Source: Eledone cirrhosa
Lineage: Eukaryota
NCBI GenBank assembly: GCA_964016885.1
Contig: OZ024740.1
Location: 102,982,001 to 103,046,000, forward strand
DNA length: 64,000 nt
Direction: 5' to 3'
The notes under the pieces are model-generated. The model was not told the DNA's origin, made no database searches, and saw only the letters and a list, made by a program, of their open reading frames with translations. Shown here piece after piece: positions 15,679 through 32,339 of the stretch (within the stretch, counting starts at the first letter, position 1; every line of letters begins with the position of its first letter). The position numbers were made by a program, and so were the translations under genes.

Positions 15679-16019
15679 GGAGGCACATAGCTTAGTGGTT
15701 AGAGCATTGGGCTTGCAATCGAAAGGTTGTGAGTTCAATTCTCAGACCGGGTGAAGTGTTGTTTTCTTGAGCAAGAGACTTTATTTCATATTGCTCCAGT
15801 TTACTCAGCTGTAGAAATGAAATGATAGGACTGGGGTCCATATCATTCCACTGCAAAATGGACGTGGAGGTGCCACGGAAAAAAAAGCACCCAAAACTCA
15901 CTGTAAATGAGGTTGGTGTTAGGAAGGGCATCCAGCTGTAGAAATCAAGCCAGAATCAGTTCCCGTCCTACCCTTGCAAGCAGGGAAAAGCGGACATAAA
16001 ATGATGATGATGATGATGA
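15679..16019 (+). mobile_element. tRNA-derived SINE with RTE-type 3' tail ending in (ATG)n
   Basis: Box A-like TAGCTTAGTGG and box B-like GTTCAATTC, core TTGAGCAAGAGACTTTATTTC, tail GTTAGGAAGGGCATCCAGC...GGACATAAAATGATGATG shared with the RTE 3' UTR at 43445-43700. Confidence 0.8.
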
Positions 16020-31065: not shown

Positions 31066-31464
31066 TATGCGAGCGACGACATGGTACCCCCCCCCCTCTC
31101 TCTCTCTGAATAACTAACACTTTAATTGTATCTCTCTCTGTCTAACGGCCTATCTCTCTTTTCCCCTCCTTCTGTTTTTCTGTCTCTCTCTGTAGATGTG
31201 TGTGTGATTATAGAGAGAGATAAGAACGACGGAGTGAAGAGCGACAGAGAGAGTAAAGCAGTTAAATTATAGAGAGGGGGGAATGATCTATTATAGAGAG
31301 AGAGGGAAGAGCGACGGAGAGAGTAAAGCTAAGAAACTATAGGGAGGTGTGTAGGATACATACATAATACATACAACGACACTCAGCTTTATAATATTAT
31401 ATATATATATATTACAAAATATGAGGAAATAATAGACAAAAATATACCTATTTTTTTCTTCAAA

Positions 31465-31555
31465 GTCCCGACTGCAATTTCGCTAATCCGTGTCAATGTT
31501 TCTGCACTATAAAAATACATCAACGCTGTGAGACAGATACGGCTTATCAAGAGAC
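31465..31555 (-). ncRNA. Type I hammerhead motif, U3-A8 core variant, long stem II
   Basis: Minus strand GTCTC-TTGATAA-GC...GC-GAAA-TTGCA-GTC-GGGAC. Confidence 0.6.
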
Positions 31556-31932
31556 CCCTCAGAAAAAAGGACTTTTTATTTCGTAGCAAGTAAGAATATC
31601 TCGAGAGGCGGAGGGAGAAATTAACACATGATACAGTGGTCTCAGACGGGTAGTAAGGTGAACAGCAAACGAATATCGTATTTGCAAGAAAAAGCAGTTA
31701 GTACACTCCTGGGTTAACTCGACCATGGGGGAGTTTGGGACAATATAAGAATGAAATACACACACATATTCATATGTATATGTGTGTGGTATCCGACTTA
31801 ACAAGTTTTGATCGATGACCAAAAGAGCTAAAATAATAAAAATAATTAAAATAACCCAATAATCAGAACTATTTATCAATTTACAAAATATGAGGAAATA
31901 ATAGACAAAAATATAACAATTTTTTCTTCAAA

Positions 31933-32023
31933 GTCCCGACTGCAGTTTCGCTGATCGGTGTACAACATTCTGCACTATAAAAATGTATCAATGCTGTGAG
32001 GCTGATACGGCTTATCAAGAGAC
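31933..32023 (-). ncRNA. Type I hammerhead motif, U3-A8 core variant, palindromic stem III
   Basis: Minus strand GTCTC-TTGATAA-GCCGTATC...GATCAGC-GAAA-CTGCA-GTC-GGGAC. Confidence 0.65.
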
Positions 32024-32186
32024 ACCCTCGGGCACCTTTGTCTCTTCCTGGAAACCAATACTTTTAGAACCAGTCTGCCAATGTATATATATGGCCAATT
32101 GAATACACATGTGTAGGTTTTTTTCTCATTTTTTTTTTCTAATTTTTCTCAGTTCCTTCCTCTCATCACTCTTTACTTTCTATTTA

Positions 32187-32222
32187 TCTTCTGATGAAGG
32201 ACTAGTGTCCGAAATGTTAAGA
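32187..32222 (+). ncRNA. Minimal type I hammerhead motif (Penelope-like)
   Basis: TCTT-CTGATGA-A-GGAC-TAGT-GTCC-GAAA-TGTT-AAGA. Confidence 0.75.
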
Positions 32223-32339
32223 CTCTCTTTCTATTATTTCAAGCGTTAAACTAATATATTTCTTCCATATGGTGTGTCGTTTGTTTTGATATTTTTTTGT
32301 TATTTTTGTTAATACTATATATATATATATATATATATT

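Follow-up and report, generated by a model that had tools for sequence, protein, structure and literature searches.

A decayed U3-A8 hammerhead repeat in Eledone cirrhosa, probably from a non-autonomous retrozyme family with Penelope-type ends

Two hammerhead ribozyme motifs with a U3-A8 pair lie in tandem on the minus strand of a 64,000-nt stretch of the Eledone cirrhosa genome (assembly GCA_964016885.1, contig OZ024740.1, positions 102,982,001 to 103,046,000 of the forward strand; this whole stretch is referred to as the window), raising the question of what kind of element left them there and whether it still works. A preliminary description made from the letters of the window had proposed a candidate retrozyme, from which double cleavage would release a non-coding circular RNA of about 468 nt. 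The reading favoured here, to which we assign a probability of roughly 75%, is that the locus is a decayed, 5'-truncated copy of a U3-A8 hammerhead repeat that is probably inactive, and that its family likely moved as a retrozyme that was not autonomous but depended on Penelope-like elements (PLEs) for reverse transcriptase (RT) and endonuclease.

Two hammerhead motifs in a partial tandem insertion

Both minus-strand motifs were recovered where the preliminary description had placed them, with the 468-nt spacing that it gave, and cleavage is predicted at 31938 and at 31470; they fall in a pair of repeats (D19) of 107 nt that are 87% identical and likewise spaced by 468 nt. In the upstream type I motif (31933..32023, minus strand), the 5' strand of stem I, GUCUC, occupies 32023-32019, followed by U3 at 32018, A8 at 32013, G12 at 31949, C17 at 31938, after which the cut is predicted, and the 3' strand of stem I at 31937-31933. 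The stem I extension is missing from this motif, and stem II contains a C-A mismatch. The downstream type I motif (31465..31555, minus strand) has its stem I strands at 31555-31551 and 31469-31465, U3 at 31550, A8 at 31545, G12 at 31481 and C17, with the predicted cut after it, at 31470; it retains a long stem I extension, and carries a C-A mismatch in stem II in addition to a U-G at 15.2-16.2. Core nucleotides 3-9, 12-14, 15.1, 16.1 and H17, together with a Watson-Crick 3-8 pair, are present in both motifs, and the insert from A9 to G12 is 62 nt in each. The palindrome ascribed to stem III is perfect (ACUGCAGU) in the higher-coordinate, transcript-upstream copy, the other copy reading AUUGCAGU. 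It had also been claimed that the core and stem I are identical between the copies while the stem II insert diverges; the motifs differ at 13/91 positions, with 1/29 in the core and stems I and III (at 15.2) and 12/62 in the insert, a contrast that runs in the direction claimed and is weak on its own (Fisher p=0.055).

The motifs stand out from the background, with two matches to a hammerhead descriptor in the real window and 0.1 per shuffled window (maximum 1, 50 shuffles), the downstream motif being missed by the descriptor because the search halted at an earlier GAAA within the loop. A covariance model search of the window matched the two motifs only, by construction. An Rfam search of the window reported no hammerhead at either motif, as had been anticipated for searches with a canonical core. 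This miss is not explained by U3-A8 alone, since Rfam was also blind to the hammerheads of a C3-G8 sister lineage (described below) in 4/4 loci tested.

The motifs form part of an insertion of 618 nt, or about 1.3 units, that is a 5'-truncated partial tandem (31412..32029, minus strand), its boundaries being read from BLAST matches of family loci, which begin at 32029 and stop at about 31412. The unit between the predicted cut sites (31470..31937, minus strand; 468 nt, 35% GC) has a longest Met-initiated ORF of 55 aa, and is family sequence over its entire length, with homology to units of 475-567 nt at other loci. Beyond the last cut site is a 3' tail of 58 nt (31412..31469, minus strand), the family end lying at about +60 to +64 and preceding a TA tract, represented here by the (TA)n target tract at 31398..31411. 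Past each cut site is an intron-like stretch (31448-31412 and 31916-31827, minus strand) that is AT-rich and includes AG/GT, CTGAT and TTTTAG; the donor-like AG/GT also occurs in the sister lineage, and the stretch is degraded in the upstream window copy. The reading of this stretch as an intron was set aside, a search of the genome for the spliced junction having given 0 matches; spliced copies are perhaps not to be expected, because the main 3' end of the family falls within the stretch.

The 5' end of the element directly adjoins an unrelated repeat of about 300 nt, of which the final 54 nt are present together with its TA tract (32030..32092, plus strand). Stem I and U3-U4 of the upstream motif can base-pair with AAGAGACA in this neighbouring sequence (minus strand, 32046-32039), creating a predicted 8-bp hairpin that would rival the hammerhead. 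Copies of the 300-nt repeat (L159-L177) have fixed ends and (TA)n on both sides, and no hammerhead was found in them. Co-insertion of the element and this repeat in one event was considered and is not supported; given these fixed ends and the missing hammerhead, a deletion explains the junction equally well. Two further features of the window lie outside this unit. The first is a minimal hammerhead motif with a canonical C3-G8 core (32187..32222, plus strand) that sits in the end of a far more abundant repeat (approximately 32170-32311) ending in (TA)n, and for which most related contigs have a C at 32215, giving the usual ACGU palindrome. The second is a tRNA-like match at 15688-15745 (plus strand), probably the head of a SINE.

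A dispersed family and its Penelope-type ends

The motif region yielded 973 first-look candidates in the 3.0-Gb genome, and the 40 of these that were scored are 86-91% identical to it, the query excluded. Genome-wide searches with exact motif patterns returned 72, 18, 41 and 207 matches, and 0 for each reversed control. The family so defined is a dispersed repeat of head-to-tail partial tandems with a unit of 440-570 nt (468-567 nt where large insertions and deletions are absent; an 80-nt duplicated block occurs in some units). The unit is non-coding, as had been proposed, with a GC content below 50% and no Met ORF above 55 aa in the four units examined (longest 38-55 aa). The copies are circularly permuted, in that the stretch before the first hammerhead matches sequence with which the unit ends elsewhere in the family. 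Among 69 loci, two anchored hammerheads in tandem are found in the window and at 7 others, same-strand arrays of more than two hammerheads were not found, and the longest copy is 846 nt. The 5' ends are spread round the unit, and the idea that they cluster where the ribozyme cuts was considered and dropped as weak (about 3/69).

The 3' ends are far more uniform. Counted from the last cut site, 52 of the 69 fall at +58 to +88, a range that overshoots a true end near +60 to +64 because the alignment extends slightly into the TA tract. A further 5 fall at +185 to +200, 5 earlier and 7 elsewhere, three of the last group being arrays with a final hammerhead too worn to anchor. The 69 loci had been retrieved with queries containing the tail, and the test was redone with a pattern that leaves the post-cut bases free. 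With that pattern, 100/100 of the matches listed (of 207) continue past the cut site into the tail, and the template that was copied therefore had an intact junction. Head-to-head inverted partners within 700 bp account for 7 pairs among the 100 matches listed, one being an apparent duplicate, and a second survey of 49 loci found three true inverted partners and one internal hairpin. Family insertions as a group display a partial tandem structure, a 3' tail, an inverted 5' partner and a microsatellite target. As a separate observation, a SINE-like repeat occupies one ATTATTATAT site of the unit in L016, L023, L027, L037 and L154; the duplication lengths differ in L016 and L023, and these insertions are therefore likely independent. 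No description of this hammerhead family was found in the published literature, where supplementary species lists may include it.

Such ends direct attention to the PLEs of the same genome, for which a GIY-YIG search gave 10,597 candidates, with 150 scored and 50 loci fetched. One locus, L113, contains an autonomous PLE with an RT, a C-terminal GIY-YIG domain and a CxxxxCxxC linker, the linker being Neptune-like according to PMC8557442. The element (L113:2250-7450, minus strand) is near-intact; its two minimal U3-A8 hammerheads are separated by about 5 kb, its tail ends in (TA)n, and copies of its end are 97-99% alike, indicating a young element. Its hammerheads have a GUA site and an ACCGGU stem III, and two alternative 3' ends lie ahead of the (TA)n. 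The non-coding ends of L113 show no similarity to the unit (51-171 of 200 shuffles score as high), and the autonomous Penelope sharing the repeat, for which the preliminary description had suggested a search, was found neither in L113 nor in the 50 fetched GIY-YIG loci. Pieces of PLE protein occur near family copies at 6/127 loci and at 0/30 further loci. No coding-order continuation of such pieces from a unit was seen in the loci examined, and an ORF for RT plus GIY-YIG between terminal repeats is absent from the family units and loci examined.

Long ORFs beside family copies were considered as an autonomous partner and rejected. One of them, a 576-codon open frame at L035:3050-4780 (plus strand), stops some 200 nt short of a family copy that lies on the opposite strand, and is presumably the terminal exon of a host gene for a membrane enzyme resembling chitin synthase; the others we take to be LINE-like and helicase-like pieces. 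At a further locus (L074:5000-8413), a sister-lineage copy faces an older PLE head-to-head; the PLE has a U3-A8-like motif that is worn, and the two are probably separate insertions into one TA tract.

These results bear on the possibility that the copies are merely 5'-truncated pLTRs plus the tail of an unfound autonomous PLE, with no separate non-coding replicon. Truncated PLE ends dominate animal genomes (PMC4209133), the tail and (TA)n structure of the family match those of L113, and the GIY-YIG candidates scored are only 150 of 10,597. The longest copies, however, run from the end of a unit through a hammerhead to the start of a unit and a second hammerhead with no ORF between, the 40 best whole-unit matches remain inside unit sequence, and 30 loci are without common upstream sequence, making this explanation unlikely. 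The favoured reading of a non-autonomous retrozyme instead accommodates PLE insertion marks on a purely non-coding hammerhead repeat, in a genome that also contains a young PLE whose ends are of the same type, and on these sequence features the PLE enzyme class is a plausible mobiliser.

Two states of the 3-8 pair

The U3-A8 core had been interpreted as compensatory for the canonical C3-G8 pair, and this interpretation is borne out by a homologous sister lineage with C3-G8 and by covariation of stem II between subfamilies. U3-A8 is found in 50/50 BLAST-found copies of the window lineage, such that the pair is fixed in this lineage, and the 26 copies of the sister lineage comprise 16 with C3-G8, 6 with C3-A8, 3 with U3-G8 and 1 other, both counts being read without pattern restriction at positions 3 and 8. 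A tally of 103 motif copies from all searches (77 U3-A8, 18 C3-G8, 4 C3-A8 and 4 U3-G8) includes patterns that constrained these positions and four rows mis-sorted between the two groups. The sister unit, of about 400 nt, is homologous to the U3-A8 unit (score 82 vs 31.2 +/- 4.0, 0/200 shuffles). Nearest copies are 73-88% identical in the C3-G8 lineage and 82-93% in the U3-A8 lineage, and the former is therefore the older. When positions 3 and 8 were masked, a supported branch separated every U3-A8 row from the rest in each of two trees (28 rows, 98/94; 11 rows, 100/99); the first tree draws on 30 chosen rows from the 77-row group, rooting is by midpoint, and the direction of change is taken from the copy ages. 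Along a ladder of subfamilies the stem II insert lengthens from about 40-50 to 62-66 nt, with the window copies in the latest subfamily, and position 7 varies among subfamilies (U, A, C or G).

Pairing in the stems is supported at the family level as well. For pairs 3-6 of stem II in 42 related representatives, 118/168 cells are paired, as compared to a shuffle mean of 90.7 and maximum of 108 (10,000 shuffles), and to 44-76 in slid registers. A separate count of 18 copies gave more modest support, with 85.8% paired (8/500 shuffles), a covariation score reached in 7/500 shuffles and no excess of doubly changed pairs (4 vs 3.8 shuffled, 329/500); in this set, stem II pairs 4 and 5 are unpaired in 6 and 10 of 17, and the 3-8 pair is formed in 18/18 rows, one U-G included. 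Sequence changes in stem I preserve pairing across copies, and the palindromic stem III is retained across the family. In the recent subfamily, conservation of the core does not clearly exceed that of the tail (22/646 vs 95/1855 differences), as would be expected of neutral decay after insertion.

Cores with a single mutation were considered as evolutionary intermediates, a role that was rejected when C3-A8 as one clade failed (p-AU 0.0061). The share of C3-A8 fits background decay (216/1597 non-CpG G to A), and the single-mutant cores look like decay products. In the inverted pairs of L052 and L197, the C3-A8 mismatch is present on both arms, which hints at copying from a mismatched template or at homogenisation of the arms. 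The occurrence in nature of C3-G8 and U3-A8 forms of one ribozyme makes their direct comparison possible.

A different route would have the family move through uncut linear read-through RNA, with the hammerhead cutting rarely or serving, for example, to end transcripts, and with circles unneeded. Such RNA would yield ends identical to those from a circle, the junction is intact in all of the copies listed (100 of 207 matches), cores with a single mutation are frequent in the older lineage (9/26), and PLE hammerheads cut poorly in vitro (PMC4209133). Against this route, a core that is fixed and stems that covary over several subfamilies imply that selection for the fold is needed, the single mutants occur at the background rate of decay, and copies of at most 1.5 units would be expected to shrink if they were regenerated from linear templates over a long time; we regard it as quite improbable.

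Decay of the window copy, a proposed cycle and known systems

For the window locus itself, the predicted folds argue for decay. The C-A mismatch lies at pair 10.3-11.3 in both motifs, where most family copies have C-G, and the upstream motif is truncated immediately 5' of stem I. The hammerhead fold is 14.1 kcal/mol over the minimum fold for the upstream motif, which is predicted to misfold, and 6.8 kcal/mol over it for the downstream motif; the corresponding values are 2.8-3.8 kcal/mol for five well-kept family copies and 5.1-19.9 kcal/mol for five others, and such decay is therefore common in the family. Folding of the whole two-hammerhead transcript was uninformative, in that with no span limit the better-kept dimers lose stem I too. 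Because of the mismatches in stem II and the lost stem I extension, release of the 468-nt circle by double cleavage at this locus, as originally envisaged, is unlikely, and the window copy probably no longer cuts. It is hardly to be expected that the locus is an active source that frees the circle today. In favour of activity, neither GUC site nor any core nucleotide is altered, the stem III segments of the two motifs are predicted to be able to pair together (-10.2 kcal/mol), and stem I of the downstream motif forms with P 0.97 in a local fold. Against it, the folds are disfavoured as above, the motifs differ at 13 positions, mean identity is 0.80 and 0.84 for the window copies and 0.86 overall, which places them with the more diverged members (partly owing to flank), no family copy exceeds 93% identity to a well-kept one, and in Xenopus 8/9 predicted dimers failed to cut, as reported in preprint 10.64898/2026.07.22.740005. 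The term retrozyme candidate suits the family, which is non-coding, permuted and hammerhead-bearing, and does not suit the window locus, a decayed insertion of 1.3 units and a worn copy that is unlikely to matter to the cell. With nearest copies at no more than 93%, the family as a whole looks extinct.

While the family was mobile, the favoured reading suggests the following cycle. A copy carrying two hammerheads would be transcribed, and the ribozymes would cut at GUC, probably aided by pairing between the palindromic stems III, after which the monomer of 440-570 nt would probably be ligated into a circle. A PLE enzyme would nick a (TA)n tract and prime on the RNA at a short run of AUA located some 60 nt beyond the junction or, less often, at about +200. 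Reverse transcription would then circle the template and halt at random, leaving copies of 0.2-1.5 units and sometimes producing a head-to-head inverted partner. We infer cleavage, dimer folding, circularisation and the identity of the mobilising enzyme; a template primed past an intact junction would have been a circle or an uncut multimer. Monomers treated as circles show no unusual degree of predicted self-pairing (z of -0.59 to -1.56, 40 shuffles, four natural decayed monomers). More tentatively, and at odds somewhat short of even, a self-standing circular-RNA replicon may have parasitised PLE enzymes without a cognate pLTR while many subfamilies succeeded one another in this genome, and left dated ribozyme fossils that record one unreversed switch from C3-G8 to U3-A8 and, subsequently, a lengthening of stem II from about 40 nt to 64 nt. 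If so, the strict end at about +60 in (TA)n would represent direct genomic evidence for target priming by a PLE RT on the circles of an animal retrozyme.

The closest known systems are the metazoan non-LTR retrozymes, the mobilisation of which is a hypothesis in print in Cervera and de la Pena 2020 (PMC7229834) and in the preprint cited above, where Li, Clavereau and Pollet (2026, preprint 10.64898/2026.07.22.740005) also argue for a PLE origin of retrozymes. As described there, these retrozymes share with the Eledone family non-coding head-to-tail units of below 50% GC, one type I hammerhead per unit, a short palindromic stem III and co-occurrence with PLEs. The unit size lies inside the 51-972 bp range given in the preprint and is longer than the 170-400 nt of the retrozymes in PMC7229834. 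Unlike the retrozymes of these accounts, the family has a U3-A8 core and a stem II insert of 62-66 nt, consists of dispersed copies of 0.2-1.5 units rather than long arrays, is apparently extinct, has a predicted circle that is not strongly self-paired, and is without a cognate pLTR among the elements found. With the features of PLEs described in PMC8557442, the family has in common partial tandems, a post-hammerhead tail, an inverted 5'-truncated partner and (TA)n targets; unlike PLEs, it has no RT or endonuclease ORF, and long helices I and II in place of a minimal hammerhead.

The U3-A8 pair is not new, and is already in print for natural and PLE hammerheads. For instance, the hammerheads of the Cercyon PLE of Schistosoma carry U3-A8, with about 1,300 hits (Cervera and de la Pena 2014, PMC4209133), and natural U3-A8 hammerheads have been reported, and stated to be active in vitro, by Perreault et al. 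2011 (PMC3088659). The 3-8 covariation is the same as in the latter cases, but unlike those described there, both states of the pair occur here within one repeat lineage of a single genome, C3-G8 being the older. From its sequence, the family would be a variant of the non-LTR retrozymes already known from animals, resembling them in all sequence-level features examined except self-pairing, and what it adds to these systems is a U3-A8 retrozyme lineage with a long stem II, a C3-G8 predecessor and clear PLE-type ends.
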